Source: Desulfatiglandales bacterium (GTDB lineage: Bacteria > Desulfobacterota > DSM-4660 > Desulfatiglandales > Desulfatiglandaceae). Taken from it: a stretch of DNA of 64,000 nt. Of this stretch, positions 3,335 to 23,080 are shown in pieces. The DNA lies in contig OY759599.1 in the NCBI GenBank assembly GCA_963662465.1, forward strand, positions 832,001 to 896,000, in the 5' to 3' direction. Position 1 is the first letter of the stretch; each line of letters opens with the position of its first letter. A program made the translations under genes and the position numbers. Under the pieces are notes generated by a model. That model had not been told where the DNA came from and searched no databases. It worked only from the letters and a program-made list of their open reading frames with translations.

Positions 3335-3454
3335 TGAAATGATTTCTCAGAGTTATGAAATGAATATGCGATTATAATATAAAGGTATTTCCAGTTTGTC
3401 AAACTATCGTTTCATTTCTTTTGAAACGATAGCCGGAACAGTCCATTACGCCGA

Positions 3455-3694: not shown

Positions 3695-3715
3695 GCATCC
3701 TTTTTGATTGCGGTA

Positions 3716-5941
3716 TTAAAAGCCAATCGCATTTCCCCCAGCATGGATTTTTTTGACCCTGACCTCTTCCTCCAAAGCCATCACAAGGGTCTGATGTTTC
3801 AATTTCCTTTCGGGGTAAAACCCATATCGGTCCCTCACGGTCTTGAAATCGCCGGGGGATAGATCCACAATCTCCTTCAAGCACTTTTTGTTTTCCCCAT
3901 CCAATGGCGATTTGATCAAGGGTGAGAGGAGTTTTTTGTAAAAGATGACATTTCCCTCCGGGGTGAGAAAATCAAAGTTCAGCTTGTGATTGAACCTTCG
4001 AATGGAAGCCGCATCCAGGTCTCCCATGCGATTGGTGGTGCAGATCAGTATCCCCCTGAAGCGCTCCATACTCGTGAGAAATTCATTGGTGAGGCTGAGC
4101 TCCCAGGAGCGTTGCGCTCGATCTCGGTTAAAAAGCAGGGATTCCGCTTCATCCATGATCAGAATAGCTTCCTCCCGTTCCGCCTCTTCAAAAGCATCCC
4201 GGATGTTCTTTTCACTTTCGCCAACATATTTACTTTGAATGTCGCTGACACGCTTGCAAATGATCTCCCGGTCCAGACGTTCTCCAATGTAGCGAGCCAG
4301 TTCGCTTTTTCCGGCGCCGGGAGGGCCATAAAACAGGAGATTCATATTCACCATCTTACCCTGGGGTGAACTTCTGAGATAAGCGTCAAACACTTCCAAC
4401 TGCGCCATCACCGCATCCATATCCCCCTTGATATTCAAACCGTTCAGAGAATACCGTTTGTCGATCCGGTCACGATCAACCTTCTTCTCTCCGCCGTTTT
4501 TCAGGGTTTCATGGGCCTCCAGGGCCAACTTTACACTTTCTATAAATGCGCCTTTTGTTTTGTGGTCCATCTCCTTTGCTTTCTTGACCGCCAAATCCGC
4601 CGCGCCTGCACTGACCCGGTAAGTTCCTGCAAGGTTTTCAATTTCCGGCTGGGTTAAAAAGCGTTTTGATTGGTTCTTTCTGAGGATGTTTTCCCAGAGT
4701 AAAATGCGCTGGCGTTTGTTAAAAGGCCTGAAATGGAGGCTGAATGCAAACCGGCGAAGCACCGACGGTTCGATATCCTCGATCTGGTTCGTGATCCAGA
4801 TCATCCTGAGTCCGGGTGTTTCCATGAGTTCGTTCATCCATCCTTTATCCTGGGTTTCCCCTCGCATGAACCACGAAAAACGGGTGTTCAAAAGGTTGTC
4901 CGCTTCATCCACCACGATGAGCGACCCCAGTCCCGAATTCGTCATATTGATACAGGCCAGGATCGCGGCCCGCCTGTTACGGGTGGTGTTGGCCTCGCCA
5001 CGGACAATCCCATAAGGAGAAAGACCCGTTTCCCGGGCAACCCCGGCCGCAAAACTGCTCTTTCCTGTTCCCGGCGGGCCGTAAAGAAGAATATGGGTCG
5101 ATGATTTCGGCTTTTCACGAAGGAGGGCCAGGGTGTGCGCGATTTTCTTTTCTCCCAGAAAATGATGGGCCAAGGGAATACTCTTGTGATTCAGGCGAAC
5201 AAAGAAGTTTTTGGATATAAGCTGGGAAGAGGGGTTTTCAAAAAGAGGACGAAAATCATCCTCCAGACCCAAATCATATCTGTCAATTTCAAAAAGGCCG
5301 ATTCTTTCCAGTTTGCCGGTAAGGATATCATTTAAGGCGCTCTTGCTGATATTCAGGAGATTGCAGAGATATCGCCTGCCGCTGAATTTCTGGCATTCCA
5401 AATGGTTGACAAAATAGGCCTCTACCGGGTCATAGTTGGATACAATGAAAAGGAAGGTGCAGAATTGACATTCCTGTTCCGTCAAGCCAAACATTTCCCG
5501 AATGACATCCAGGTTCTTTTCCAGATCCGATTTACCCCTGAATCGAAGTTCCTCAATTTTCAAGGTCAGCAGGCGTTGTACCTCGCGAATCATTTCCCGG
5601 TGGAACCCGAGGGCCATCTTTGAAATGATCCGCCAAAGATCCCCTCCGTATTCGCCATGGTCAGACAGAGATTCAGAAAGGCCTTCCTCAATTTCTTCTC
5701 GGTCTTCATCTTCGAACTGGTTTTCAAGGAATGTGCCCAAACCTTCACGGTTTTGTCCCAGGTTCCAGCAAATCAGCTCCAGCGCTTCCTCATCCAGAAC
5801 CGGATAGCGGTCAAAGTGCCCAATCAGGATAGCCGCCGTATGGCTCAAAACAAACCGTTCATTTTTGTCAGGCATCTGATTTTGACTTCGTCCCATGTTT
5901 TTTCGTCTTCTTTTTCGTCTTAATATCATCGGCATGTTCAA
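3716..5941 (-). CDS. AAA+ ATPase with two AAA modules
   Basis: Walker A GPPGTGKS and GPPGAGKS, Walker B IVVDE and LIMDE, arginine-finger regions LRRF and IRRF, C-terminal IGF; start codon uncertain. Confidence 0.9.
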   Translation of the reverse strand: MNMPMILRRKRRRKNMGRSQNQMPDKNERFVLSHTAAILIGHFDRYPVLDEEALELICWNLGQNREGLGTFLENQFEDEDREEIEEGLSESLSDHGEYGGDLWRIISKMALGFHREMIREVQRLLTLKIEELRFRGKSDLEKNLDVIREMFGLTEQECQFCTFLFIVSNYDPVEAYFVNHLECQKFSGRRYLCNLLNISKSALNDILTGKLERIGLFEIDRYDLGLEDDFRPLFENPSSQLISKNFFVRLNHKSIPLAHHFLGEKKIAHTLALLREKPKSSTHILLYGPPGTGKSSFAAGVARETGLSPYGIVRGEANTTRNRRAAILACINMTNSGLGSLIVVDEADNLLNTRFSWFMRGETQDKGWMNELMETPGLRMIWITNQIEDIEPSVLRRFAFSLHFRPFNKRQRILLWENILRKNQSKRFLTQPEIENLAGTYRVSAGAADLAVKKAKEMDHKTKGAFIESVKLALEAHETLKNGGEKKVDRDRIDKRYSLNGLNIKGDMDAVMAQLEVFDAYLRSSPQGKMVNMNLLFYGPPGAGKSELARYIGERLDREIICKRVSDIQSKYVGESEKNIRDAFEEAEREEAILIMDEAESLLFNRDRAQRSWELSLTNEFLTSMERFRGILICTTNRMGDLDAASIRRFNHKLNFDFLTPEGNVIFYKKLLSPLIKSPLDGENKKCLKEIVDLSPGDFKTVRDRYGFYPERKLKHQTLVMALEEEVRVKKIHAGGNAIGF

Positions 5942-6097
5942 TCCTCCTTCTTTGTGCTTGTTGAAGGGAGTATGGCATGTTAATGTTCCATAGTACGGAA
6001 TGAAGAGTGGCTATTTTTGATAAAGTTCGACAGGCGCTTGAAATGTTTTTGAGGCCCATCGGTATTGTGGCACTCCGTGACTTTCGAAAGGTCGTTT

Positions 6098-7105
6098 ATG
6101 CCCAGAAAGAGCAGTGATAAAACTTATGGTGAAAAGCTGATCAGTTTGTTTGCGCGACTTCTGTTCACCAGAGAACCTCATTCTCTGTCAGACCTGGCCC
6201 GCATGCTGGATTGCTCCAAACAGACGGTCTTGAGGCTGATTGAGGACATTGAAAGGTCCTACAAGGTCCATATCGAATGGTCTATGCAGGGTCGAAGGCG
6301 GTTTTTTCGCCTGAAAACGCTGGGGCAGCAACCACCCACGCTGAACCTGACGGCCACGGAACTGCATGCGCTCTATATGTGCAGATCCTTTGCCGAACAC
6401 CTCCTGGGCAACGGGTTTCTGGAAGAAACGACCCGGGCGTTGGAAAAAGGCCGTACCCTCCTGCCACGGGAGGCAAGTTTTTCCTCCCGCCACTTTGCCG
6501 CTTTCAGGCCGGGAACCATTGATTATACGCCCCAACAGGAATCCATTCGAACCTTACTTGCGGCCATGGAGAAAAGCAGGGTTTGCAAAATTTCCTACCG
6601 GGCCATCCTGGCGAAGAAATCCAAAACCTTCTACATCAAGCCATACCGGCTATTCTCACACCAGGATACGGTTTACCTGCACGCAGGTCTGGCCAGAAAG
6701 CCTGGGGCCTTGTACAAGGAACCCGCGTTTGACCCTCTCCTGGCGGTTCACCGGATTCAAAAGGCTGAGTTGGACGAACGGTTTTTCAAGTTTCCGGAAG
6801 GCTATGATTTTGAAAAAATCTTCAACCGGAACTTTGGCGTGATTAAGGAGGAAGCCTTTGAGGTGAAGGTGGAATTTTTCGGGTTTGCCGCAGGGTTTGT
6901 AGCGGAACGTATCTGGAGCTCGGACCAGCAAATTCAGCAGTTGCCGGAGGGAAAGATCCATCTCTCATTAAGCGCCTCCTCCGAGCCCGAGTTAATGGCA
7001 TGGCTCCTATCATTTGGGGATGAGGCCAGGCTGCTCGGGCCGGATTGGTTGGTGGAAAAAGTGAAGGGACAGGTAGCGCGGATGGAAGAAAATTATAGGG
7101 TTTAA
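6098..7105 (+). CDS. HTH-WYL-WCX transcriptional regulator
   Basis: N-terminal HTH (LARMLDCSKQTVLRLIEDI), WYL core (ISYR...IKPYRL...VYLHA...VHRI), C-terminal WLLSFGDEARLLGP. Confidence 0.9.
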   Translation: MPRKSSDKTYGEKLISLFARLLFTREPHSLSDLARMLDCSKQTVLRLIEDIERSYKVHIEWSMQGRRRFFRLKTLGQQPPTLNLTATELHALYMCRSFAEHLLGNGFLEETTRALEKGRTLLPREASFSSRHFAAFRPGTIDYTPQQESIRTLLAAMEKSRVCKISYRAILAKKSKTFYIKPYRLFSHQDTVYLHAGLARKPGALYKEPAFDPLLAVHRIQKAELDERFFKFPEGYDFEKIFNRNFGVIKEEAFEVKVEFFGFAAGFVAERIWSSDQQIQQLPEGKIHLSLSASSEPELMAWLLSFGDEARLLGPDWLVEKVKGQVARMEENYRV

Positions 7106-7375
7106 ACCAGTGATTTTGGGATACAGATTTCCACAGACGATAAAAAATAGAAGATCAGCGACAACTATCTTCTGAAAAATCGGCGCAAGGTGACCGCAAT
7201 CTATGCTATACTCAATTTTCCGGACCGCTTGATCAATAGGTTGGGAAACGCTCGTGGTGTTTTTAAAACTGAACATTTTACATCTTCTGAATGGCGTGGT
7301 GGGTCTGGCTGAAGTCCCTTCCACGATATTGCGTTATGGATTCCCAAACCGGCGCGTAGGATAAGGAGGGAAAAG

Positions 7376-7723
7376 ATGAAGCCTTTCAAAACGTCTTCGC
7401 TCAACAAAAACGAAAGAAGCGCTATTCGAACTGCTGATGAAATACTCAGAAAGCAATTCCCTATTGACAGTGTAATCCTTTTCGGTTCAAAAGCTCGGGG
7501 CGATTCAGATGCTCATTCAGACATTGACTTGCTCCTCATAACGTCCCGACCCCTTCATTGGAAAGAAGAAAAGTCTATTATCGGGGTACTGTTCGACATT
7601 GGTATGGAATATGATGTTATTTTCAGCCCGTTGTTTGCCTCTGGGGATGAGTGGGAAGGTGGTATATTTACCCAATTCCCTGTTTACGAAGAAATCATGA
7701 GAGATGGGGCCATTGTCGCGTGA
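7376..7723 (+). CDS. Minimal nucleotidyltransferase (MNT) antitoxin
   Basis: LFGSKARGD..SDIDLL motif; overlaps the HEPN start. Confidence 0.9.
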   Translation: MKPFKTSSLNKNERSAIRTADEILRKQFPIDSVILFGSKARGDSDAHSDIDLLLITSRPLHWKEEKSIIGVLFDIGMEYDVIFSPLFASGDEWEGGIFTQFPVYEEIMRDGAIVA

Positions 7724-8060
7724 GCCGGCAGATTATCATGGACTATTGGATGGAAAAGGCGCGGGATGACCTTGCATCCGCACGGGACAATTATACGTCA
7801 GGCAGATATCAGAACGCCGTGAGGGATGCCTATTTTGCCTGTTTTCATGCTTTTTCATCAGTGCTCATAGGAGAAGGGAGAAAATTCAAAAAGCATAAAT
7901 AAGTTCGTTCCATGCTGCATAGAGATTTCATTCGGGTAAAAAAACTTGATGCATCCTGGGGGAAACATTACGACTGGCTTTTTGACAACCGCCACAAAGC
8001 AGACTACCGCCCATTGGTTCAGTTTGATCCTGATCAAGTCAGGGAGGTAATTGACAGAGT
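7720..8060 (+). pseudogene. HEPN toxin with an in-frame TAA (7900-7902), cut at the 3' end
   Basis: KARDDL..A, AYFACFHA and RHKADY motifs lie in one frame broken by a stop; the sequence then runs into the antisense of the helicase fragment. Confidence 0.85.
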
Positions 8061-8914
8061 TCACGAATGCGGGTCATCCGGTAAACGGTATCAAGGCTCT
8101 GGAGCACACCACTGTCAGGATTTTCTCCTGCGGTTTCGACAATGGCCGCGGCTTCGGGCAGTGCGCTGAAAGCGGATGGATTTTCAAGCAAATCCTGTAA
8201 CCACAGGTCCGGTTTTCCAGGGTAATGAATGATCCGGGCCAATTCGGCCGCAGCAAGGGTATCTTCACGATCGACCCACAACCTGAGACCGGCCATCACA
8301 GTCCTGATCTCGGGCGTGGAGAGAAGTCCTGTTCTAGGTAGAATGGCTCTTATGTTGATGCTTTCAAGTGCTTCGGCCACCTTTTCGCAGAATTTGTTGG
8401 TTCGACAGAGGATGCCGATATCTCCCGCTTTCATCCTCCTGATTACCCGGGTTTCAGGGTCCCTGACTTTTGCTTTTGTGTTCCGAAGCAGGGCTTGAAC
8501 ACCGCCCGCAATGGCTGAAGCATCAAGGTCTTTATTACGGGTGTCCAGTTCCCACCATTCCATGAAGTGACCCAGTTCAGGAGGGTTCGATTTTATGGAG
8601 GACTTTAACCTCACCCGTTCCTTTGGAATACCGTGAGGCTTAAAGGCGCGAACGAATATTTCCGAAGTAATGCGTACCAGGGGAGGGCGACTTCGCCAGG
8701 ATTTGTTCAGCGTTTCGGGGGAGTGGTCCTTATTTTTCAGAGTTCCTGGTAAATGACCTTTACGCAACTTAACTGTTTGAAATCGTTATACTGGAGCTTC
8801 TCATAATTTCGTGTGCATTTCAGATTTTAGTGCAGCGTAACTAGCTGAAAATATTAGGTGGGGCAAAATATTTTTTTTATTGACAAATGAAAACTGAAAA
8901 ATTATCTTCAGACC

Positions 8915-11182
8915 ATGATTGTCAAAACAGAAAAAATTAGCGACCTATCCATATGGACCGAGCGGGATTGGAAGGAAAAAATCACTGTTACGGTTTATCA
9001 TGAGTATCGTCCTGTCGTCAGTTTCGATCCTGGGAAGATAAATGATAGGAGACTCGCTGCCGTACAACTTGTCGAGCTTGGTTATTGTAAAAACCGGGTT
9101 GCCGGTAAAATCTGTGGGTTTCACCGCAATACGGTTGGCAAACTGCTTCGCACCAAAAGACTTTTAGGTGTTGAGGCCATATTTGAGGACAACCGTGGTC
9201 CCAAGGCTCCCTGGAAATATATTGGCAGCATTCGCAAAACCATCAAAAAACTTATCCGCGAGAATCCTGACTGGACTGACCAGCAGATTGCAAATGCCGC
9301 GGAAAAGCAAACTGAAACGACTATTTCGAGAAGTGCTGTAGCTCGTATCAGAACCGCGGACCAAGATGCAGAAACTGAAAAGCCTACAAAGCATGACTTG
9401 GAGCAACTGGCTAAAATTGCGGATAGTATTGATTTGAAGCAACACGACGAGCGACAGCTTTCTTTCAACTTTGAGGCTGATTCTGAGTTCAAAAAGAAGG
9501 TAGATGAATTTGCTGATGAGGATACACCCAAGCCACAAACCGATACAGATAAAGTATTCCTGGATTATCTTCAACAGGGACAACGCAATGTCTTTGCCGG
9601 CATGCTTCTTCACCATCTGTTTTTAGATCATATCAACTTCCCAAATGCCTTTGATTTGCCTTCTTATTCCAATAATATGTATGATAATTATGAAGTGATG
9701 GAAACTGTCCTTTTCGGGTTGAACATCGGGTTGCCATCTATCGAATCCCATAAGCTGGTCAACAGTAGGGACATGGGGCTTTTGCTGGGACGAACCAGTT
9801 CCCCCGATGAGACCACTATTCGGTTGCGTTTAAAACAGATGGCCGAGTTCAAGCCCTCAGAGAGCCTGATAGATTATTTCGCAAACCTGTTTCTATCGTT
9901 GGGGTTCATCAACCCAGAGGTGTTTTTTATCGATGGGCACTTCCTTCCCTATTATGGACTGAAAGTTCTATCCAAAGGCTACCATACCGTGAGACGAATT
10001 GTCATGAAAGGAAACGAGATTTATGTTGTCAGCGACCTTGACGGGAAGCCTTTCTTTTCAATTACCGAAGGGTGTGATATCGATTTCAGGCCGATCATCA
10101 TAAGAGCGGCCGACAAGATAATCAGCCTGGGTGTCGACCGCCCCATTGTGGTTTTTGATCGCGGTGGTTATGGTGTTCACTTTTTCAGTCAATTATCGAC
10201 AAGGGCTGACTTTATTACGTGGGCCAGGTATGTGAAAAAAGATGAATTGAAAGACTTGGAATATACGAGCTGCTTGATGTTTAATGGGAAAAGATATCTC
10301 ATTGCCGAGAAAACAAAACTGATTCGTGAATCGATTTCTACAGCTGCCAAAGAAGGCCGAACAGAGGCAACTTCGACAGAAGTACGTATGGTTGTTTTCA
10401 AGGAATTGGACAAGGATAGACCTGTGGCAATATATACCAGCAATCATCAAAAGCCTGCTCCTGATATTGCCGCATATATGCTTTCACGATGGGGAGAGTC
10501 TGAAAACTTTTTCAAAGAGATGATGTCCCTGTACAACTTCAATTATCATCCCGGTTATGATCTTAAAGAACTTGAAGAACAGCCTCTTGTAGATAATCCT
10601 GAGGTAAAAACAATCAAAAAAACGATCAAGGGAATTAAACAAAAGATGGGGCAATTGGCGCTTGCAAAACAACAAACAGAGTCCAAAATAGAAGCACGAA
10701 AAGATCTTCGTCTTAAAAAAAAGCTAAACACGCTCCAGGAAGAGATAGAGAAATACGACAAAGAGCTTGACGGTTTTCAGGCAGCCTTAAAAGAAATGCC
10801 TGACAAAGTATCGATAATTGAAGTGCTGAAAGGCAGACCAATGAACAAGGCAGATCTGGAGAAAAAGAAGCTCTACGACCTGATACAAATGATTGCCTTT
10901 CACTCACGCGAGCATCTGGTTGGCCTGTTCCGTTCATGTTATGATGATCCGCGGGATGTGAAACAGATCCTGACAAAGGTCACAAAACTCCCTGGTTATG
11001 TGAAATTAGTCGGGAAAACACTTGTTGTGCTTTTAGATTGGATAGAGGACAAAAAGCATCGGAAGGCAGCAACAAGATTTTGCCATCTGATAAACACTAT
11101 GTCGCCCAAATTGAGAGGTCGCATGGAGTTCGACCTTTATTTTCGCATCTCCTCAATCCCTCAAGTGGGTTATTGCTGTTAA
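8915..11182 (+). CDS. Large DDE transposase (IS4-superfamily-like)
   Basis: FFIDGH, VVFDRGGY and RWGESENFFK triad motifs; N-terminal HTH region; coiled-coil insert. Confidence 0.85.
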   Translation: MIVKTEKISDLSIWTERDWKEKITVTVYHEYRPVVSFDPGKINDRRLAAVQLVELGYCKNRVAGKICGFHRNTVGKLLRTKRLLGVEAIFEDNRGPKAPWKYIGSIRKTIKKLIRENPDWTDQQIANAAEKQTETTISRSAVARIRTADQDAETEKPTKHDLEQLAKIADSIDLKQHDERQLSFNFEADSEFKKKVDEFADEDTPKPQTDTDKVFLDYLQQGQRNVFAGMLLHHLFLDHINFPNAFDLPSYSNNMYDNYEVMETVLFGLNIGLPSIESHKLVNSRDMGLLLGRTSSPDETTIRLRLKQMAEFKPSESLIDYFANLFLSLGFINPEVFFIDGHFLPYYGLKVLSKGYHTVRRIVMKGNEIYVVSDLDGKPFFSITEGCDIDFRPIIIRAADKIISLGVDRPIVVFDRGGYGVHFFSQLSTRADFITWARYVKKDELKDLEYTSCLMFNGKRYLIAEKTKLIRESISTAAKEGRTEATSTEVRMVVFKELDKDRPVAIYTSNHQKPAPDIAAYMLSRWGESENFFKEMMSLYNFNYHPGYDLKELEEQPLVDNPEVKTIKKTIKGIKQKMGQLALAKQQTESKIEARKDLRLKKKLNTLQEEIEKYDKELDGFQAALKEMPDKVSIIEVLKGRPMNKADLEKKKLYDLIQMIAFHSREHLVGLFRSCYDDPRDVKQILTKVTKLPGYVKLVGKTLVVLLDWIEDKKHRKAATRFCHLINTMSPKLRGRMEFDLYFRISSIPQVGYCC

Positions 11183-11236
11183 AGCCTTGCTCATCGTTTC
11201 AGCCATCCTACGCAGGGTATCGTGTTTCGACCACAT

Positions 11237-11262
11237 GTAGGGGCGAAAAATCTTTCGCCCTA
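11237..11262 (+). repeat. GTAG-type REP-like palindrome, inside the IS
   Basis: gtaggggcgaaaaatctttcgcccta; relatives at 26047, 37205 and 40033. Confidence 0.7.
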
Positions 11263-12579
11263 ATGGCCGAAACAATGATCAAGGCCGCTGTTGAACTAAA
11301 TGCACAATTTGAATTGAGAAAAAACGTCATTTACTATGATGTCTGATTTTTGGACTGTTTCTCAAAAATGCTTTCAATGCACGCATCCATCAAGGCCGGA
11401 TCGGTTCCTCGAAATCCATAGATGGATTGTTTCTGGTCACCGACCCAGACTGTTTCTTTGGAGAGTGATGCCAGTTTTAGAAGGATGGCCAGCTGGATGG
11501 GACTGGTGTCCTGAAATTCATCAACGAGCAGGAGGTCTATGCTTCCTTTCAGGTGTTCTTGAACGGCCGGTTCGTCTAAAAGCGCCAGTGCCAGGACTTC
11601 CTGGTCTGAGAAATCCATCACGCCCCAAATCCGTTTGTGCTCCTGATATGCATTCAAGGTCCCAATGGCCGTATCAAACACCAGCGTTACCGCTTCAACC
11701 AGATCCTTCTTTAATTGCGGGTGCCTGTCATGGCGTGAGGCAACCTGGTTCAGTATCTCAATGTGTTCCTCTGATTTTTTGCCCACGTTCAGACGGTTCA
11801 ATCGCAACCAGTCAGACCAGGACAATGTTCGTCCCTGCCGAAGCATATTGAGGCAAGCAGTCGCCTTTTGAAGGGCACCGGCGGTAACTTTGGTGGTGTC
11901 CTCTTCTGTATCCACATTATTGATAAAGTCGGCAAGTGCGGATTCCAATTTTTTATCTGGATTTCCTTCTTTTCCAAGCGGTTTGCCCAGTAATTCCAAT
12001 ATGCTCTCGGTACTTATCTTTTTGGACGCTTCAAGCGCTTGGGTATCCAAAGCATTATAGCGGGCCAGTTTAATGACCGATTCCACGGTATCAACCCACT
12101 CAAAAGCTTCAAGTCGGCTTTTAAGGTCTGTAAATCGACTGGAGATACCCCCCGTCATCACTGAAGACATGGCGCGTTTTAACTCACGTTTTGCGGCTGT
12201 TTCGTCCAGGACCATCGTTTCGGGAAAAAGCCCTTTTTCAAACACAAAGTCCATTACCAGCCCGCTGCAGATGGAATTAACGGTGCCCAGGCGAGCTGCG
12301 GCCAATCGGTTGGCTTCACCCGTCAGCCCTTCTTTAATAAGCCGTTGCCGAACCCGCTCCTGCAATTCCGCGGCTGCCTTTTTGGTGAAAGTGGTGGCAA
12401 TCACCGCTTCCGGTCGGACTTTCTTAGAAGCGATTTTTTCCTGAAGGAGGGTGGATAACCGATAGGTCTTGCCGCTACCGGCACTGGCGGTAATGATGTG
12501 AATGTTTGTCATGACGCCTCTTTTAGTACCTTATCGCCTGGTTTACTGTCACAAAAAACAAGAAAATCGCTATATGGCA

Positions 12580-12749
12580 TCAGTTGTCAGTTGTCAGTTA
12601 TCAGTAAAAGCATACCCATAACATATTGAAAGTATTTGTACAAATCTGCACATAATTGTGAAGACCTCTTCCATACTTCCAAATCCTCAAATTTCAAAAT
12701 AACCTCCAGTGCTGACAACTGACAACTGACAACTGATAACTGACAACTG
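12580..12749 (-). other. Truncated four-helix-bundle (23S rRNA IVS-type) mini-gene flanked by inverted heptamer tandem repeats
   Basis: (cagttgt)n at 12580-12605 and (ctgacaa)n at 12712-12749; GGAGG RBS then TTG-KFEDLEVWKRSSQLCADLY at 12697-12587. Confidence 0.8.
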
Positions 12750-12779
12750 CGGCTCTGCCGCCTCAGATAGTTTGGGCAA

Positions 12780-15353
12780 TTAAGCACTGAAGGCCTGTCC
12801 GCAAAGAACGGAAAGGTCGCAAAACTTGCATGGTTCCAGGAAAATCCGGTCATCCACCAGTTCACTTTCGGGTGGGCCGTCAGGATCATTCCCACAGGCT
12901 TTGACGCTTCCTTTCCGCAACTCAGACCAGATTTGGTTAAAGCTGTTTTTGAAAGCGTTCCAGGTTTCCTTCGGCGTGGGGCCTTCAATCACGTGGGCAT
13001 CCGGAAAGGCTTCCGGATCAACCGTTATCAGATGCCCGGCTTTCAGCATCAGGTATGCCACAGGCGGAAATGCAGCAGCCTCTTTTTGGCGAACCAGATG
13101 ACCATAAACGGCCAGTTGCAGCCCGACACCTGAAGCCAGTTCACCATGCCTATAATTTACACCGCCTCGTTTAAAATCAATGACGGCTCCTGATTCCTGC
13201 AATACCAGATCAGGACGACCTTCAATCTCGATTCCTATGGAGCGTGCTTTAAGGCTGTATTCTTTTTCAACGGAACGTATGGTGAACCCTCCGGTCTGAA
13301 GCATTCGAAAGAGTTCCAGTGCGGCTGTTTTCACAGACCGTTTCACTTCAGCCCTTAGATCATCAAACCCGGGTTGAAAAAAGGAAGCGGCCAATCGTGG
13401 GCCTTCAGTGTCAAAAATGGACAGGGCCGTTTTTACGGCGGCGTCAGGCTTTTTGATATTCTGAAGCAGCGCCCGAAGCAGAATTTCATGTATCAGCCAC
13501 CCTTCAAGGGTTTCAGGGGAATCCAGAGTAGCGGTGGTGCCGCCCCAGACATTACCCAGATATTGAACCACCCATTTGAAGGGACACGAAACGAGGCTGG
13601 TAAGACTATTGGGGGATTCCTGCTTCCTCTTGGAAATCAAGTGAGGCCCCACTTTCCATTCCGCCACCGGTTCGGGAAGTGCTTTAAAATCCCGCTTTTT
13701 CTTTGCGGGACTTCGTTCGAAAATGAGTTTTTCCCGTTCCAGTTCCTTCAGCCTGGCGCTGTCTTTGACTTTTCCGGCCAATTCATCCCAGAGGGGGTGC
13801 GGGTACTGGGCTTCACCGTCGAGGCCTTGTCGGGGACAGACCAATATCAGATTTTTGCCGGCAAACATGAGAGGACGTTGCCATCTCTCCGCGGCCCAAA
13901 CGGCCTCATCTCCAGGGGTAGGTAGCAAAACGCCTTCTTTTCGAAGCGCTGCACGCTCCTGCGTGGTCAGCAGGTCCGAAGTTATACCGGGTGCCGTAGT
14001 TCGACTGAAAGACCACCAGATCACCTTCTCAGCTTCCCCTGTGATACATTCAGGCGCCCCCACTGTTGCCGGACCCGCCTGCGCTTCATAAAGCGGCACC
14101 GTTCCGCTGCCTTCGGTGATATCGTGAAGCATACGGCGGATCTGGGGGGCGGTAAAATGGGTCAGCCCTGAGATCTCAACGATTCGCCGGCAGTTTTCCA
14201 ACTGCGATGTCAGCGCCTGCCATTGATGGCCGGGTTCATCTTTCGGCATTCTTCCCCGGGTCCACGATCTTAAAAGATCGATACGGGCTTTGATTTCCGT
14301 TACCGGGTATCGATTGCCCGTAAAAATCGAGGCGAAGATGGTGCTAATCCTCTTTTTGAGCCGTTCACGGTCGCGCTCGTTTTCAATGGCGTCAAGACCC
14401 TTTTTAAGCGCCGAATTCCATTCATCAGAGCCGACAGCGGGGTATCTCTGGAGCGCACGGGAAAGCCTGCGGGCGATCCCCCGTGGAACCGGGCTGGTGG
14501 GCAATATGAGCAGTTCAAGCGCGCGCTGCGGGTCCGGCGGGTTCCAGCCCATGGCAAGGGTGAGGGGAAGGATTTGCAGCAGGGCATTATCAAAAACCGG
14601 AATCCCCGCGCCCGTTGTGGGCAGGCCAAAACGATAAAGCGCTTGATCCAGAATACTGTCGGGACCGATGATAACGGTTTTGTTCGCTTGCCTTCCCGTG
14701 GAAAGCCATGCAGCGATTTCGTTGGCCGCCGTGCCGCAGGTGGCGGGTCTCAGCAGCTGAATCGAGCCGTCGCCTTTGGGTTTGAATGACGATTTTGTGC
14801 ATGCTGCCAGATCGCCGGCGGATTTAACGGGTTTCAGTTTTTCTTCAATTATCTTTGTGCCGGCCTTTTTTAGAGACTGAATGGTCGTTTGTAAAACGGA
14901 AGGGAAACGATCAGGTGGTTCCAAAAGGGTCAGTTGTTGAACGGCGTTATTGCCGGACATGAGCGTTTCCGCCACCATCAAGAGACGGTCTGGAAATCCG
15001 GGAGATGCTTTTTCGGTAACTTCCGCAAGGTCCCCCAGCCGTGTGCTGACCGGTTGGAAGCGCCAGCCGTACATTCGAAGCTGATCCCGCCAATCCAGGA
15101 CTCTTTTGGCGGTTCCGAAAGGGTCCACCTGCGCGGAGCGGCTCCAGAATCCGGATACAGCGCGAATCGTTGAAACCAGTTCCGCGGCCCGCAAGGCGTT
15201 TGGGACGGGTGGACCGCTCAGACCAGTCATGGTTTCAAGCAGGCCCAGCAAGCCGGATGGGCCGAGCCAGATTTCCCCGGAAACAGCATTTCTATCCTGC
15301 AAGGGACCGGGCCAGTACCCGCTATCAAAAGCGGGGTCGAATGTAATTTTCAT
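12780..15353 (-). CDS. AddB-like PD-(D/E)XK nuclease, partner of the helicase
   Basis: C-terminal SPNSL..LVSCPF, EGRPDLV, VIDFKRG, QLAVY and CKFCD; lies directly upstream of the AddA-like gene. Confidence 0.85.
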   Translation of the reverse strand: MKITFDPAFDSGYWPGPLQDRNAVSGEIWLGPSGLLGLLETMTGLSGPPVPNALRAAELVSTIRAVSGFWSRSAQVDPFGTAKRVLDWRDQLRMYGWRFQPVSTRLGDLAEVTEKASPGFPDRLLMVAETLMSGNNAVQQLTLLEPPDRFPSVLQTTIQSLKKAGTKIIEEKLKPVKSAGDLAACTKSSFKPKGDGSIQLLRPATCGTAANEIAAWLSTGRQANKTVIIGPDSILDQALYRFGLPTTGAGIPVFDNALLQILPLTLAMGWNPPDPQRALELLILPTSPVPRGIARRLSRALQRYPAVGSDEWNSALKKGLDAIENERDRERLKKRISTIFASIFTGNRYPVTEIKARIDLLRSWTRGRMPKDEPGHQWQALTSQLENCRRIVEISGLTHFTAPQIRRMLHDITEGSGTVPLYEAQAGPATVGAPECITGEAEKVIWWSFSRTTAPGITSDLLTTQERAALRKEGVLLPTPGDEAVWAAERWQRPLMFAGKNLILVCPRQGLDGEAQYPHPLWDELAGKVKDSARLKELEREKLIFERSPAKKKRDFKALPEPVAEWKVGPHLISKRKQESPNSLTSLVSCPFKWVVQYLGNVWGGTTATLDSPETLEGWLIHEILLRALLQNIKKPDAAVKTALSIFDTEGPRLAASFFQPGFDDLRAEVKRSVKTAALELFRMLQTGGFTIRSVEKEYSLKARSIGIEIEGRPDLVLQESGAVIDFKRGGVNYRHGELASGVGLQLAVYGHLVRQKEAAAFPPVAYLMLKAGHLITVDPEAFPDAHVIEGPTPKETWNAFKNSFNQIWSELRKGSVKACGNDPDGPPESELVDDRIFLEPCKFCDLSVLCGQAFSA

Positions 15354-15445
15354 GATGCCTCGATTGGGAATTCATGCCAAGCAGATAAAAATAACGTCTC
15401 CAATCTGCAGCGTGGCTTATGACGTCTGCGGGGAATAGGCCTCCA

Positions 15446-16294
15446 TTAGATTGCCTTTCTACAATCCACGGTTGACGGGCCGTCCTCCAGATTGCCAACG
15501 ACCGGTTCCGCGCCGTAAAAGATCACATCAACCCTGTTGGTAACCCGTGAAAATGGCGGCATGTCCAAAAATCTGAACGTTGTCCGTTCAACTTTCAAAT
15601 CAGGGTTCTTTCTCGCTTCATGCTTTTCTGGAAGGTTTTCCATTTCTTCCGTTGTAAACTTACGATACACCCTATGCTTTTGGATAAATGTTCCTCGTTT
15701 AAAAAAGGCGGGATAATCATTCCAGTTTATACCTTTTTGCCATAGCATTTCCTGCATTTCGGTACCTTTCTTTCTGTAGAGTGCCTTATGCGAATAATAA
15801 CACCGAGCCGCCATGGAAATACTGTTTTTCGTAGCGTCTAATTCTCTCCACAAAAATGTATTGGCTGCCTCTTCCAATGTTGGGACCTGCCATGCGCGAC
15901 TATCAAACAGAGCAAGCCGGTTCTTTTTTTCAGGAATATATTCCGAAATATGCCCATTAAAATAGGCTGTTGCCATCGATGCCAGAATAGATACCATTTT
16001 TTGAATACGCCGGTCAAAAAATATCCGGCTTTTATATTCCCCGCTGTACCACACAAGGTTGATTTCATCTGACTGCGTATAGCCCATATTGGCTTGTGTC
16101 TCTTGCACAAGATAGCGGGTGGTTTGACACATCAAATCGACAAGGCGCTTGTCATAGGGGCGCTCCAGGCCTTTTGTAAATCGACTGAACGATTTCCCGT
16201 CGATACGTGCGCAGACAGGAAGTAATGGAAGAAAACGTCTTGCCCCTTCCACTCTTTCATATTCCTTCATTCTATCGCCAAAGTTTCCCATCAT
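15446..16294 (-). CDS. Thg1-like protein (tRNA-His guanylyltransferase / 3'-5' polymerase family)
   Basis: GDRMKEYE, ARIDGKSFSRFT, YTQSDEINL, FDSR, WRELDATKNS and INWNDYP motifs. Confidence 0.92.
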   Translation of the reverse strand: MMGNFGDRMKEYERVEGARRFLPLLPVCARIDGKSFSRFTKGLERPYDKRLVDLMCQTTRYLVQETQANMGYTQSDEINLVWYSGEYKSRIFFDRRIQKMVSILASMATAYFNGHISEYIPEKKNRLALFDSRAWQVPTLEEAANTFLWRELDATKNSISMAARCYYSHKALYRKKGTEMQEMLWQKGINWNDYPAFFKRGTFIQKHRVYRKFTTEEMENLPEKHEARKNPDLKVERTTFRFLDMPPFSRVTNRVDVIFYGAEPVVGNLEDGPSTVDCRKAI

Positions 16295-16306
16295 TCTTTC
16301 TCCAAC

Positions 16307-16326
16307 TTAATTTCAGCTGAAATTAA
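16307..16326. promoter_or_regulatory. Perfect 20-bp palindrome just upstream of the Thg1-like RBS
   Basis: ttaatttcagctgaaattaa equals its own reverse complement. Confidence 0.5.
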
Positions 16327-16433
16327 ACGCTATCTTCGCATCACTCTCAATACACATGGTTCAATCCGGCCCCTGGTCTATGGGAAAATGATCAGACCTA
16401 GCCCAACCCTCTTCCTTTTATTCCAACCTGCTT

Positions 16434-18613
16434 TCAAAGCCTTGGATCCACCGGCTCGCTTTCCAGTGCCAGCACGCCGAAAACTTCAGGTCGGTCACGG
16501 AATGGACCGGCCAGCAATACCGCCGATAGGCTTCGATGTAACCCTCAACCGATTTCTTCCGGCTTTCGATTTTGTCGAGCAGGTTCGGAAGGTCAAACTC
16601 AAAATTCAGGCTTTCCGATGGAACCCAAAACCCCGTTTCGAGGTCTGTACGGCCAAGTGTCTTTTTGAGCGCATCGGCGGCCGCGTCCAATGAAACCGTT
16701 GCCGCGGCGCCCACGGCGGCATATTGCGATTGAATCAGATCCCGGGCTTTTTCCGACCACGGCATGAGCTCACAATCAAGACATACCCATTTTGTCGAAA
16801 ACGCATCCCAGAATTTTGAAGCATTCAAGGCATTGGCCATTCGCTCCAGAAGTTCTTTTTCCATTTCCCGGCTATTGAAGAATCGTCGGCCCGTCCGGGT
16901 GTAAACGATGCCAACACCATCGTTTTCCACGCCAAAGTGTTTTGCCGCGGCCTCTTCGTTTTGACAGAGGACCACAACAGCGCGGGACCCCATGTGCTTT
17001 TCCTGGCATATCACCCTGGGGATGCCTTGTGATCGAAAATAGGCGAAACCTTCCTCCGGATACTCAAGATATCCTCCCTGTTGGCTGGTCTCGGTTGGAG
17101 ACATGGTCGGCGGCAAATATATGAGCCATTTTGGATTGGCCGCGAATCGGCTCATGACTTCAAGGGCAGCCATTGATTGTTCTTCCCTGATCGTCACGTT
17201 TCGGCGCAAACGCGTAGAGATGAACCGCTTTCTGATGACGTCTTCCGCTTCGAGCAAGTCGTCATATTTCTGCTGCACCGTCAATGGTGAATCAGCGTCC
17301 GCATCTGTTTTCAGGGAACGTACCGGCTCACAATACACTTTTTTTGCTTTGACTGAGACCATCTCCTTTTCAGGATACCGCAACGCTGTGAGCTGACCCC
17401 CAAACACACACCCGGTATCAATGTTGATGGTTCTGTTCAGCCATTCCGGTGTTGGAACGGGTGTATGGCCGTACACCACCGTAGTGTGTCCGCGGTATTC
17501 CGCCGCCCAGTTATATCGGACCGGCAACCCGAATTCGTCAGTCTCGCCCGTGCTTTCACCGAAGAGGCAGAAATCCCTGACCTTGCCGGACCCCCGCCCC
17601 TGCATTTCCTCCTTAAGCCCGGCATGTGCGACCACAAGTTTCGCATTATCGAGCAGGTAGTGGCTCACAAGCGCTCTGATAAATGTTTTCGTTTCCTCCA
17701 TAAAAGCGGACCGTGTATCCGTCGGAAGGGCATCTATTTCTTCAAGGGTTTCAGCGAGTCCGTGTGCCATTTGGACGTCCTTGCCGTTGAGTTTTTTCAT
17801 GAGTTTGATGTCATGATTGCCCGGCACACAAAGGGCGAAACCTGCCTTTACCATATTGAACACCAGTCTGATGGTATCGACGATTCTGTTGCCTCTGTCC
17901 ACGAAATCCCCGAGGAAAATGGCGGTGCGCCCTTCCGGGTGGGAAAAAACAGGCCCGGCCATGGGGCCTTCGTTGGTCCTTATGAAAACCGTGTAACCGA
18001 GCTTATCCAGCAATGCTGTCAGCTTATCATAGCAGCCGTGGATGTCCCCGATGATATCAAATGGCCCGTGCAGATCGGTTTTGTCGTTCCAAAGGGGAAC
18101 GCGCTCAACTGTGGCGCTGTTGACTTCCTCTTCGGAATTGATTTTCCATACCTGCCGGAAGCCTTCTCTTTTAAGCGCCTTTCGCCGTCGCCGCAACTGG
18201 GAATTCTGTTGGCGAATGACGCGCCTTCCGAAGTTCCTGTCAGGGCGGTCTTTGTTCCTCATTTGACAAAGATTCTCCGGCAAATCCAACACGATGGCCA
18301 CCGGAAGCACATGGTATTGCCGTGCCAATGCCACCAGTGGTTTGCGGGCCTCCATTTGGACGTTTGTGGCGTCAATAACCGTCAATTTGCCGGCTTCCAG
18401 CCGTTTGGCCGCAATGAAGTGCATGACTTCAAATGCCGCCGAAGTAACCGAGAGATCGTTCTCATCATCGGAAACAAGGGCGCGACAGTCATCTGATGAT
18501 ATCACCTCCGTCGGCAAAAAGTGCTTTCTCGCAAAGGATGACTTGCCGGCGCCGGAGACCCCTATCAGAACGACAAGCGACAGCTTGGGGAGCTTTATGT
18601 CAATTTGTTTCAT
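16434..18613 (-). pseudogene. pnkp: Bacterial polynucleotide kinase-phosphatase with an internal deletion in the ligase domain
   Basis: Kinase GVSGAGKS, phosphatase GDIHG/GDFVDRG/GNHD, ligase motif I EKHMGSR; after DLK the sequence jumps out of frame to the conserved terminus VFGVLALESEPVDPRL*. Confidence 0.92.
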
Positions 18614-20015
18614 GATCGATGCTCTTGGCTGAAAATGCACATCTGAGTCGGCGCGCCAAGTTTATCATCAGCGGCCCCGACCGGGAGGAACTTTGTGGTA
18701 TAGTTATATGTGTCTGCCATACCGTTGGCCCATGCCTCAAACTCATCGCGAGTCCATTCAAAACGATGGTCTTTGTGACGCAGCTTTTCAGGGCCAATCG
18801 TCTCCCACAGGGAGTTGTACTCATGATTCGGCGTTGTCAATACAATGAGCCCCGGCCTTGCAAATTCAAATAACACGCGCTCAAAAGCCTTGAGACGGGG
18901 TTGATCCAGATGTTCGATGACCTCTATTACTGCTGCCGCATCGAATCCCGCCAACCTTTTGTCCCGGTACATGAGTGAGCCGTGAAGGAGTTCAATTCGT
19001 TGTTTTTGCATGGGCGGCAAATCCTTCATGTGAAGGCGTTCATGGGCGATTTCAAGGGATCTGATGGACACATCAAACCCCATTATTTTTGTGAACTGTT
19101 TCTCTTTCAGGAGCAGCGCTAACAGCTTTCCGCTGCCGCATCCCAGGTCAACGATGGTTTCCGCCCCCGATGCCTTGAGTGCAGCGCGTACCGCGCCCAG
19201 CCGCGCTTCATTGAGATGGACCTTTTCTATCTTTTCTTCGGATGGCGCTTTGGGTTCACCGATGTCATCTTCCCCGGTCGGGTTGATTTCCATGAGACGC
19301 AAGATCGCTTCCAGCGCATAGCTCCGCAGATATTTGAGATACCGTTTGGCAATGGTGTCGCGCTCGGGGTGATCGGACAGCCAACCCTCACCTCTTTTCA
19401 GGAGTTTGCTGATTTCATTTTTATCAATGTAGTAGTGTTTCCGGTTGTCCAAAACAGGAATGAGAACGTAAAGATGGTTAAAAAGCGCCTTTACGCTGGT
19501 CGTCTTTGATAGTTCGACGGTGTAGTAAGGGCTGACGCCCCATTCAGGGAAATGCTCATCCAGGGTATATGCCTGAGCATCCACGCGGTAACCCAAAGGC
19601 TCAAACAGCCGCCTCAAAAACCCCTCCCCACCTCTGCATGGCAGCACGGAAATCTTAACGGTCAGCGGCATCGGTGTCTCAACAAGTTCAGGCCAAACAT
19701 TGCATTTGCCGTTCAATGTTTGGCCGAAAACCCGCGAAAGCGTCATGCTCATGAACGAGGAACACACATAAGGACGGTCATTTACATACGGCTCAATGGG
19801 TACACCCGTATGCTGGTTTCCTTTTCCTCGAACGAGTTCGACAGGATCCACATCCAAAAGGATAGCCAGGGTGCATTTTTCGTCGCTTGCCTCGGGGTAG
19901 AAGATATTCACGATGCCAAAGGACATTTTTTCGCCTGGCATCGGTAAGGATTTTTATGAACAAGATATCCCAAATCAGTGGCGGGTCTATGTGTTGTCGA
20001 AATGGTCAGCAGCAT
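18610..20015 (-). pseudogene. hen1: Hen1 RNA 2'-O-methyltransferase with a 1-nt frameshift in an A6 run (19926-19931)
   Basis: MLLTISTTHRPATDLGYLVHKNP starts at 20015; body has YVNDRPY, DLGCGSG, EVIEHL, TPN and HRFEW; ATGA overlap with pnkp. Confidence 0.92.
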
Positions 20016-20030
20016 TGCCTTTTTTCTCCC

Positions 20031-20219
20031 TCAATCCATTCTTACCACTTTCTTCATCAATTTTTCAAAACCATCCCAATTATTATTCCGACAAAGTTTC
20101 CCCATTTTTTCTGTCTGAGCCTGTGTAGCAGTTTGATAAAATTTAACCATTTCCACAAAACCCACATTATCCGGGCATGATGCTTCCCATAAATTCTTAA
20201 CAATCTGCCTGGTCTTCAT
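20031..20219 (-). CDS. Small hypothetical protein heading the hen1 run
   Basis: 62-aa ORF with an AGAGGA RBS, ending 15 nt before the hen1 start. Confidence 0.5.
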   Translation of the reverse strand: MKTRQIVKNLWEASCPDNVGFVEMVKFYQTATQAQTEKMGKLCRNNNWDGFEKLMKKVVRMD

Positions 20220-20271
20220 GTATCTTTTCCTCTATACGTGTCCCCATGCCATTCTCATGATGACCCAGTTA

Positions 20272-20463
20272 TGTGACATTTTTAGCCACATTTAAAGGAA
20301 AATTCTCAAGAAATCAAAATCTCATATTATTGAAAGATCTGTGGCTAAAAATGACACACTAAACTAACTGTCGAGTAATGCGGTTGCCTTCATGCTATCA
20401 AGCATTTCCGATTTCTTCAAAAACTTCATGATTTTTAAAAAGACTATGGCCAAAGACGTCACA
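20272..20463. promoter_or_regulatory. Three pseudo-palindromic boxes in the divergent hen1 / rtcB promoter region
   Basis: TGTGACATTTTTAGCCACA (20272), TGTGGCTAAAAATGACACA (20340), TATGGCCAAAGACGTCACA (20445). Confidence 0.7.
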
Positions 20464-20557
20464 GTTTCAGAGTAAATTTCGGCAAATCACTTGACAAAAC
20501 AGATCTTTATGGAATTTGATCTGTTTGATAAATGAACACATCAAGTATAGGAGATGT

Positions 20558-20849
20558 ATGCGCGCAAAAACGACCCTGATCGCCTCAGATAAGAGCTGGA
20601 TCGAAGGCGATGCCATCAGACAGTTGGAAAAAACAGCGGAGCTGGAGGGCATGCTGTCAGCCGTGGGGCTGCCGGATCTGCACCCGGGTAAAGGAGGTCC
20701 GGTGGGCGCTGCCTGCGGCACCATCGGCGGCGGAAGCCTACAAAAACATTGAAGCGGTCATTGTGGATATGGGCCAGGCGGGCCTCATCAAGGTTCTGGC
20801 CACCCTGCGTCCGCTGATAACGTACAAGATGAGGATGGAAAAACAATGA
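20558..20849 (+). pseudogene. rtcB: Internally deleted RtcB2-type RNA ligase
   Basis: WIEGDA..PDLHPGKG.PVGAA, then GTIGGG, then AYKNIE..LRPLITYK; only scraps remain. Confidence 0.88.
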
Positions 20850-21262
20850 TACGCCGGCTTCAGATTACATCAGGAAGAGGCCCGGAGGAGTGCTGCTGGG
20901 TGGTCTTTCAGCTGACCCATTTCCTGACGCGATTGGCCGGTCGGAAAGGGCTGAAGACAGACCTGATAGAAGCCATTCCTGGAGATTATCCCAACTCCCT
21001 TAAATCAGCACTGATCTCTGTTGAAGGATCTCAAAAAGTCAACGATTTCGTTCAACATTGGGAGGGAACCATCCAGTGGATCGGTCAAAGCCCCTTTCGG
21101 CCCAACCATAAACGCAAGAGTTGGTTTGTGGGAGTGACGACGCTGACACCCATGCCACCTGAAAGCATAAACAGCCGCGCCTTCCGCATGAACCCGATCG
21201 AAACTCCTCCAAAACCCCCGGCAGGGCTTCCACCAGATACGACGGTAGTGACAACAAGGTAA
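20846..21262 (+). pseudogene. prfH: Peptide chain release factor H, truncated before the GGQ domain
   Basis: LQITSGRGPEEC and GTIQWIGQSPFRPNHKRKSWFVGV; no GGQ motif. Confidence 0.85.
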
Positions 21263-21655
21263 AAGATACCGGAACAGTGCCCCTCTCCATCCTGACCGAA
21301 TGGGTCAGAGAACGGATTTCCGGAAGATTCAAGATCAAAGCGGACGCACAGGGGTGATTCTTTGCGCGCCGCAAACTGGTGGATGGGGATGACCAGGTTT
21401 CCGCTCGATGTCACCTAATCGGTTTCCGTTCGATCGCCGCTTTGATAGGCTTCTTTGGAAAGATCCACTGGAAAATGCCGACGTCTAACGCTTTCTTTAT
21501 TTTTTTCTTTTACCCATAATATTTAGCTATTTTATAGAATATTTTTGGAGGTTCTGTTTTTTGTTGAGCATTCCCCTTTTTGCTGTTAGCATTCAGTTCA
21601 CGTAACAAGTATGACATTTTTGCTCACAATTTCAGAAAAATATGGAAAGGGATTT

Positions 21656-23001: not shown

Positions 23002-23080
23002 AAAAATTATTGATGAAAACGGAGATTATATTGTTGTTAATTCAAAATTTATCTCAACTGATGGAAAAGTTAAGAAATAT
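22985..23080 (+). pseudogene. Short fragment resembling an HsdS target-recognition domain
   Basis: NGKGHEKIIDENGDYIVVNSKFISTDGKVKKY in an alternative frame; fits the hsdM-rhuM-hsdS gene order. Confidence 0.55.

Follow-up and report, generated by a model that had tools for sequence, protein, structure and literature searches.

It has long been argued that RecBCD and AddAB act against foreign DNA, and their essential role in repair makes any defence role hard to separate. As far as the available parts of the sources go, the regulator BrxR has inverted repeats and a second box within its island (PMC9122601), CapW is released by single-stranded DNA (ssDNA) in a partly RecB-dependent manner (PMC11662680), and in bacteria Thg1 is encoded beside P-loop polynucleotide kinases and RNA ligases (PMC2904730). 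We analysed a window of 64,000 nucleotides from a Desulfatiglandales bacterium (assembly GCA_963662465.1, contig OY759599.1, positions 832,001 to 896,000) in which, between 3716 and 21262, a WYL regulator, an addB-addA-like gene pair and several RNA-repair genes stand together. An initial annotation, made from the letters alone, had proposed that a single WYL-controlled system here couples RNA repair (Hen1-Pnkp, Thg1-like and RtcB2-PrfH) to a dedicated AddAB-like helicase-nuclease. Our analysis points elsewhere: the region is very probably a decaying defence (conflict) island of independent, shuffled modules rather than one system. What stands out in it is an accessory addB-addA family found among defence genes; the RNA-repair and RtcB2-PrfH modules are of kinds already known.

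The single-system proposal fails because its genes do not co-occur. Comparison loci, genomes and sequencing runs are given below by L, G and X numbers. Our set of 89 addB-like loci (6 genome loci, 80 metagenome loci, being the best 80 of 125, and 3 loci from a sample of 400 genomes of the phylum) contains no hen1, no pnkp, one thg1 and one rtcB2-prfH; the ATPase family that adjoins the WYL gene in the window occurs at four of them. An addB-like gene is also present on 26 plasmid records, and none of the 14 plasmid loci that were opened has hen1, pnkp, thg1 or rtcB2-prfH, if one sets aside a weak similarity between the methyltransferase domain of Hen1 and a generic methyltransferase; none of the 26 accessions recurs among the 17 plasmid records carrying Pnkp or the 29 carrying Thg1. 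In the phylum sample the genes fall in disjoint genomes: the addB-like gene in G137, G287 and G297, hen1 in G186, G275 and G391 (one of them partial), and thg1 in G094, G157, G187 and G273. Thg1 was found in one of the 200 genomes of a sample of the order. The pattern is the same among close kin, where G426 and G567 carry addBA without pnkp, G492 has hen1-pnkp (87% identical) and the ATPase with no addB-like match, and G468, G528, G565 and G582 have the ATPase without addB. The gene-neighbourhood check that the initial annotation had itself suggested thus turned up no co-occurrence in the genome, metagenome, plasmid or phylum samples beyond two loci, L015 and L017, to which we return.

The genes that the initial annotation named are all where it placed them, those of the co-directional minus-strand run included, as a map of open reading frames (ORFs) and family scans confirmed; its inventory had passed over two items, an MNT/HEPN pair that separates the WYL gene from addA and, at 24782-25909, another rtcB2 of full length. 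From left to right the order is double-AAA ATPase, WYL, MNT/HEPN, pieces of addA around an insertion sequence (IS), addB, thg1, pnkp, hen1, an ORF of 62 amino acids (aa) and remnants of rtcB2-prfH, and in the order of transcription the minus-strand run reads 62-aa ORF, hen1, pnkp, thg1-like, addB-like and addA-like. The features are as follows.

3716-5935, minus strand: double-AAA ATPase, intact (two PF00004 domains, two Walker A/B pairs)
5986-6000, unstranded: candidate operator of the WYL protein, a 15-bp imperfect palindrome between the WYL and ATPase genes (from conservation)
6098-7105, plus strand: winged helix-turn-helix (wHTH)-WYL-WCX regulator, intact (PF08279, PF13280, PF25583; PADLOC WYL models; 95% identical copy in L001)
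7376-7902, plus strand: MNT/HEPN toxin-antitoxin-type pair, the HEPN gene cut by a stop at 7900-7902 (PF18765/PF01909, PF05168)
8054-8737, minus strand: addA-like middle piece, residues 388-615 of an intact relative (tblastn with the 1044-aa L001 protein; PF13361)
8738-11345, plus strand: IS with a 755-aa transposase, inside addA (PF21804; 6-bp target duplication)
11343-12512, minus strand: addA-like N-terminal piece with superfamily 1A (SF1A) motor, residues 1-390 (PF00580; 95% identical to L001 AddA)
12523-12763, unstranded: repeated sequence of 240 bp inserted between addB and addA (skipped in L001, L010, L011 and in runs X4 and X21)
12780-15353, minus strand: AddB-like subunit, intact, an inactive helicase-like scaffold plus a RecB-type nuclease with four iron-sulphur (Fe-S) cysteines (PF12705)
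15446-16294, minus strand: Thg1-like 3'-5' nucleotidyltransferase, intact (PF04446 at 111 bits, cut-off 29; motifs present)
16437-18640, minus strand: Pnkp (kinase, phosphatase, ligase), ligase domain partly deleted (TIGR04075 at 1073 bits, cut-off 750; positions 2-683 of 851)
18610-20015, minus strand: Hen1 2'-O-methyltransferase, intact after an assembly error is discounted (TIGR04074 at 623 bits, cut-off 340; upstream frame)
20031-20219, minus strand: 62-aa ORF with which the run begins (matched by neither Pfam nor NCBIfam)
20220-20360, minus strand: leader of the run, with an inverted repeat of its own (blastn and alignment to L001, L007 and L009)
20558-21262, plus strand: rtcB2-prfH pseudogenes (TIGR03073 and TIGR03072 below cut-off; comparison with L017)
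24782-25909, plus strand: second, full-length rtcB2, then a prfH stub (TIGR03073 at 482 bits, cut-off 272)
27810-27894, unstranded: two further operator-like sites before an operon of a MoxR-type ATPase and DUF2201/vWA (matrix scores 18.3 and 17.9)

The element that does hold together outside this strain is the addB-addA pair. An AddA-like gene follows the AddB-like gene in 70 of the 89 loci, which is 70 of the 71 with about 500 bp or more of downstream DNA; of the 19 loci without AddA, 18 end within 209 bp of addB. All 14 opened plasmid loci have the AddA-like gene behind addB, and 17 of the 26 plasmids are typed as conjugative. That the window holds a dedicated AddAB-like pair, as had been proposed, is borne out: it is an extra copy beside host RecB and RecC, both of which score above cut-off, as they do in G426 and G137. 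In G297 and G287 another long AddA-type gene is present besides the accessory pair, so that in all five carriers tested the pair is additional to RecBC or to another AddA-type gene. The recB and recC genes of the host lie 170 kb apart (G000:C1:5531368-5535000 and 5705429-5708773) and are adjacent in G426 and G137.

Both subunits have the architecture of a compact two-gene AddAB-type helicase-nuclease. In the AddB-like protein C590, C842, C845, C851, E696, D715, D726, K728 and Y750 are invariant in 49 of 49 aligned rows; an N-terminal Walker A, a feature of Bacillus-type AddB, was found in none of the 49. Its predicted structure (predicted local distance difference test score, pLDDT, 91) has its best fold match in B. 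subtilis AddB (4ceh_B, E 4.5e-21, template modelling (TM) score 0.59), followed by AdnA and RecC. Intact AddA-like relatives (53 full-length rows) have all the SF1A motor motifs and a C-terminal RecB-type nuclease. Both proteins lie far below the curated AddA and RecB cut-offs, and the intact L001 AddA-like protein does not pass TIGR02785 (179 versus 708) or TIGR02784 (172 versus 861). No system in PADLOC 2.0 is matched by the pair: AddA matches GajB over part of the motor only, and AddB has no match at E 1e-10. We therefore rejected an identity with Gabija or any other PADLOC 2.0 system, none giving a full-length match to both genes.

What surrounds the pair elsewhere? Upstream DNA of at least 1 kb is available at 57 of the 89 loci, at least 2 kb at 42 and at least 4 kb at 30. 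We counted defence neighbours at 31 loci with at least 6 kb of flank, scanning 153 of the 179 ORFs against PADLOC (the remainder being WYL, ATPase, IS or already annotated genes) and excluding promiscuous kinase, reverse-transcriptase and PDC-S01 matches. A named defence gene or system lies within about 5 kb of the pair at 12 of the 31, a partial or candidate one only at 7 and none at 12; this is a raw count without a control set, and it tells against a defensive reading that 19 of the 31 lack a clearly named system. The systems at the 12 loci, some of which have several, are Azaca (2), Shango (2), AbiE (3), type I and type III restriction, McrBC (2), GmrSD, Druantia-like, SoFic and type I-G CRISPR; at the last of these (L102, G137:C1:740000-760000) addB-addA lies within a type I-G CRISPR-Cas neighbourhood, between cas1/cas2 and cas3. 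On plasmids the neighbours include CBASS, ThiF/ubiquitin-like genes, phospholipase D-helicase, SIR2 and DUF262.

WYL genes do recur beside the pair, in keeping with the link to a WYL gene that the initial annotation had drawn. One lies within 1 kb upstream of addB at 4 of the 57 contig loci with at least 1 kb of upstream DNA (L003, L011, L057 and L069) and beside addB on 4 of the 14 opened plasmids, three of them Sinorhizobium copies of one cassette and the fourth from Variovorax. Because these WYL genes are only 24-28% identical to one another or less, they were recruited independently. On the Sinorhizobium plasmids (L124, L133 and L134), which come from cultured, non-pathogenic strains, the shared cassette consists of a WYL gene, a divergent 62-aa ORF, addB and addA; no kinship of that ORF with the 62-aa ORF of the window is visible.

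We conclude that addB-addA is most likely an accessory module, for defence or repair, that degrades DNA ends. By analogy with AddAB, the pair would load on free double-stranded DNA ends, the AddA motor would translocate and both strands would be cut, with ssDNA as a by-product of the unwinding and cutting. The balance tips slightly towards the destruction of linear or cut invader DNA over the repair of mobile elements, a defence role being suggested by the sporadic, plasmid-borne and defence-island distribution. More specifically, we entertain, as a tentative possibility, that the accessory family is an undescribed, stand-alone anti-phage or anti-plasmid system, an end-resection machine repurposed as a mobile destroyer of free DNA ends, which would have come repeatedly under unrelated WYL regulators (at two loci behind the operator seen in the window) and whose own ssDNA products would amplify its expression and that of neighbouring cargo.

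Could the pair instead be a back-up for end resection in the repair and recombination of mobile elements themselves, rescuing them after restriction or CRISPR cuts, with the islands being integration hot spots? The AddAB architecture kept in both subunits, the share of conjugative plasmids (17 of 26) and one plasmid locus with a gene for single-stranded DNA-binding protein and one for an SOS-associated peptidase near the pair are what such a role would predict. We find it somewhat less likely, given that the five carriers tested already hold RecBC or another long AddA-type gene and that restriction, abortive-infection and other defence genes, rather than recombinases, make up most of the surroundings. 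Moreover, broken copies are common, as for costly defence genes (those of the window and L068, and the genes annotated as split in L128 and L129), and viral contigs yielded no addB-like locus, one unannotated phage record carrying the gene.

If the pair is an accessory module of its own, how did hen1, pnkp and thg1 come to precede it here? The leader and the small ORF (20033-20360) match DNA directly before addB in L007 and L009, the leader alone in L001, and the 62-aa ORF has a 58% identical counterpart upstream of addB in L007 and L009. In six close relatives different genes stand between the leader position and addB: a WYL gene in L011, HTH/IrrE/SET genes and then rtcB2-prfH and McrBC in L017, thg1 and a sirtuin in L015, and unknown genes in L008. 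Since the leader stands directly before addB in three relatives and other genes occupy that place elsewhere, hen1-pnkp-thg1 appears to be one of several exchangeable cargoes between leader and addB. The gaps within the run (15 bp, an overlap, about 140 bp and 92 bp) are such that hen1-pnkp-thg1 are probably co-transcribed with addB here by read-through, a link that would be local. RNA-repair genes enter such islands time and again, in line with the way they are known to cluster; on a Skermanella plasmid hen1-pnkp lies near rtcB2-prfH.

A related idea grants the cargo site a function, as a regulated expression slot in which the leader repeat would bind a second regulator and drive whatever stress or defence genes are inserted before addBA, giving co-induction without a fixed system. 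The inverted repeat of the leader (20270-20360) is conserved in L001, L007 and L009, each relative has different cargo, and a second WYL family is divergent from addB in L011 and heads the run in L001. We think the idea unlikely, however, as the DNA upstream of addB in L011, L012, L013, L017 and L019 did not yield the leader motif, a scan for sigma-70 promoters and terminators stayed at chance level (17 consensus promoter sites versus 19.3 in shuffles), and no sign of a recombination site or integrase was found. A scrap of the upstream DNA of the relatives recurs at 23090-23143.

Several points weigh against separate modules and exchangeable cargo. At L015:1-1188 a thg1 gene 97% identical to that of the window, followed by a Sir2-family gene, lies directly before a 74% identical addB, and at L017 rtcB2-prfH is divergent, 3.3 kb upstream of addB and oriented as in the window; together these two loci indicate that RNA-repair genes visit the cargo site more than once. 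Since run X4, which stems from a different study, spans the junction of small ORF and hen1, this strain is not alone in carrying the cargo. The direction of change, gain here versus loss there, is argued on parsimony. Some of the 89 loci are redundant and many of the metagenome loci short, and the comparison genomes of close kin (G426, G567, G492, G468, G528, G565 and G582) are 66-98% complete, several of them being incomplete.

Which genes, then, does the WYL protein control? The WYL gene is divergent from the double-AAA ATPase gene in the window, L001, L097, L108, L117, L119 and a Desulfosarcina plasmid; at eight other ATPase loci the WYL partner is missing in three (one cut by an IS, one by a contig end). 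Together the WYL and double-AAA genes form a unit that is conserved in Desulfobacterales islands and on one plasmid, and the ATPase family is widespread (Atlas clusters). We rejected an identity with IetAS, for which the ATPase scores 105 against an IetA cut-off of 510 and whose required S8 protease has no counterpart among the flanking ORFs, where no protease family was found. From 7 sites in six WYL/AAA gaps we built a weight matrix for the candidate operator and scanned it over the whole genome and 147 loci (1.6 Mb). The palindrome is present in all six defining gaps, with scores of 23-29 on the training sites, and in the unseen gap of a seventh pair (L145, 13.9), and the window has 3 strand-matches where 0.19 are expected. 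In the leader of the minus-strand run (20220-20560) the best score is 1.1, and in the gaps inside the run all scores are below zero. Because the palindrome is conserved in the WYL/AAA gap and absent from the RNA-repair leader, the WYL gene appears to belong with the ATPase, and we see no sign in these sequences of WYL control over the RNA-repair genes, contrary to what had been proposed.

The next best scores in the genome are 20.2, at a site without WYL or AAA context (G000:C1:6191150), then 18.3 and 17.9, both before the MoxR-vWA operon of the island. This operon (within 27723-30794; a MoxR-type ATPase and DUF2201/vWA) has in front of it, besides the two operator copies, a 50-bp WYL scrap (about 27723-27773) that matches the L001 WYL gene, and it is probably regulated in trans by the WYL protein encoded at 6098. 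Outside the training set, sites scoring at least 12 among the 147 loci are those in L145, in L003 (28.4, between a decayed WYL gene of this WYL family and addB), in L036 (20.1, 484 bp before addB) and in L101 (15.8, at the start of the ATPase gene), together with three mid-score matches without WYL or AAA context (L099, L146 and L108:977) that are unexplained or due to chance. The genes most likely under the control of the WYL protein are thus its own, that of the ATPase and moxR-vWA, joined in some relatives by addBA. By analogy it most likely acts like BrxR and CapW, holding its own promoter, the ATPase and probably the MoxR-vWA operon until ssDNA releases it; activation of the DriD/PafBC type would be the alternative. 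Against solved WYL proteins it has no significant sequence match (best PafC, E 0.41).

The initial proposal, that the helicase-nuclease makes an ssDNA signal through which the WYL protein induces Hen1-Pnkp, Thg1-like and RtcB2-PrfH as one selected system, can draw on the tightly spaced co-directional run, on L015 and L017, on the WYL/AAA genes beside addBA in the closest relative L001 and, in the available parts of the sources, on the partly RecB-dependent induction of CapW (PMC11662680) and the proposal that DriD reads AddAB products (PMC9186387), yet it is very improbable with no second locus having hen1 or pnkp beside addB, the genes lying in disjoint genomes and plasmids, neither the leader nor the intergenic gaps of the run containing the operator, the WYL gene downstream of the run and pointing towards it, and a host RecBC that could supply the signal without a spare pair. 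As independent modules, hen1-pnkp and thg1 would be ordinary RNA-repair genes in a variable cargo site, and rtcB2-prfH a known two-gene unit present twice, both times incomplete.

The initial annotation had also held that this copy is decaying, which stands for pnkp, addA, rtcB2, prfH and HEPN and does not for hen1. We aligned the contigs of four short-read runs to positions 3300-21700 of the window; the best-covering run, X1, is probably the source sample, so that it serves as a base-level check only. One X1 contig of 5715 bp spans 15103-20816 and differs from the assembly by nothing but one additional base at 19925; the three runs covering this position (X1, X3 and X4) all have that base at full depth. 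The hen1 frameshift at 19925 is thus an assembly error and hen1 is intact. The breaks in pnkp, addA, rtcB2, prfH and the HEPN gene are real, the pnkp, rtcB2, HEPN and addA-truncation junctions having identical letters in the X1 contigs. In pnkp about 150 codons of the ligase domain are gone at 16478/16484 (about residues 696-847 of the 863 in L104; mapped against L104 and L095) and the last 16 codons remain, out of frame; at this junction X1 has the same letters and X3 shows the undeleted end. Loose X3 letters at 16481, read by eye as the missing Pnkp segment, suggest an undeleted pnkp in a sister population. In addA, residues 616-1044 of the intact relative (the remaining helicase and the nuclease) are absent, the truncation at 8053 is read without difference, and the place of the lost 3' part is taken by the MNT/HEPN pair, whose HEPN junction and stop are likewise read without difference. 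The insertion of the IS is recent, since X4 has the IS-free joint 8731/11346, X1 has it as a minor variant, and the genome contains at least 11 full-length copies at 98% identity or more. Of the first rtcB2 only residues 1-52 and 333-372 of 372 are left (about 280 codons deleted), and the first prfH breaks off before GGQ and continues into a remnant of an AAA_14/DUF4143 gene. As only hen1, thg1, addB, WYL and the ATPase are intact, neither the helicase-nuclease nor ligation by Pnkp can work in this strain. RNA library X21 has 90-95% identical pieces across the region in contigs of up to 62 kb, with a possible DNA content, and so shows neither transcription nor co-transcription.

The wider stretch, from about -4 kb to 32 kb, is an island full of gene scraps and cargo: a deleted WYL-MNT-HEPN copy, two degenerate vWA copies, a type I methylase scrap, rhuM, AAA_14/DUF4143, Fic genes, the full-length rtcB2 and the MoxR-vWA operon. 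The deleted copy (3455-3694) has the start of WYL fused to the end of MNT and is 94-96% identical to 6097-7737; the degenerate vWA copies are at 1298-1996 and about 3-4 kb to the left of the window. The full-length rtcB2 shows 55% identity to the family of the first rtcB2; together with the prfH stub after it, which is interrupted by a Fic/doc-type toxin-antitoxin pair, it occupies 24782-26330. Further cargo at 21611-24617 and 30860-31791 comprises the type I methylase scrap, rhuM (PDC-S05) and AAA_14/DUF4143 (PDC-S01), besides two adjacent genes that may be a RES/Xre toxin-antitoxin pair. The 240-bp insert at 12523-12763 has 10 blastn matches in the genome, itself included, and its short reading frame presumably resembles four-helix-bundle proteins. 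No integrase or tRNA was seen at the island edges.

What follows from these observations? The proposed system would have joined an RNA-repair and a DNA-resection response to damage; the locus that prompted it appears to be a chance assembly. A dispensable second AddAB-type enzyme that travels on plasmids among defence genes, however, lets the question of a defence role be asked directly, and intact copies of the pair exist in cultured rhizobia and methanotrophs. The conserved WYL operator gives a handle on the unstudied WYL/AAA pair and on the MoxR-vWA operon of the island.

In the full-text literature, which takes in few subscription journals and no supplements, we found no account of a system joining WYL, RNA repair and AddAB, nor of an accessory AddAB within defence islands. 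Bacterial Pnkp-Hen1 (TIGR04075/TIGR04074) shares with the window the hen1-pnkp order, the overlap and the catalytic motifs, both proteins being above the curated cut-offs; the window differs in its partly deleted ligase domain and in having thg1 after pnkp, where the five plasmid loci opened and L104 have none. The Thg1 neighbourhoods in the available part of PMC2904730 differ in that kinase and ligase are fused as Pnkp in the window, and that part of the paper mentions neither Hen1 nor a helicase. The two-gene unit described in the accessible text on RtcB2-PrfH (PMC9304027) is shared, although both window copies are incomplete, the first deleted and truncated, the second without a full prfH. 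With BrxR and CapW (PMC9122601 and PMC11662680, as far as their available parts go) the window shares a wHTH-WYL-WCX regulator, a divergent promoter, an inverted repeat beside the gene and a mosaic defence island, and R-BOX2 of BrxR may be likened to the second operator site elsewhere in the island (PMC9122601, same portion); here, however, the WYL partner is an uncharacterised double-AAA ATPase.

As for the pair, it shares with B. subtilis AddAB (PDB 4CEH, 3U44) and mycobacterial AdnAB the addB-addA order, the SF1A motor and C-terminal nuclease in AddA, the AddB scaffold and the four-cysteine Fe-S nuclease, with fold matches to AddB, then AdnA and RecC. It differs in an AddB about 290 residues shorter than the solved chain and lacking the N-terminal Walker A of the Bacillus enzyme, and in its distribution, which is sporadic (3 of 400 genomes) and extends to plasmids and defence neighbourhoods, in carriers that have an enzyme of their own as well. 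A housekeeping AddAB role does not fit a family that is not lineage-conserved in the phylum, in a host that has RecB and RecC. Nearest in the literature, as far as the available part of PMC5704561 describes them, are the UvrD-Cas4-like helicase-nucleases, which likewise combine an SF1 helicase with a PF12705 nuclease, occur in defence contexts, in some cases together with WYL genes, and belong to genomes in which RecB is present too; those, however, are single fused proteins or a small nuclease with UvrD, whereas the family in the window is an AddAB-sized pair with a nuclease on each subunit.

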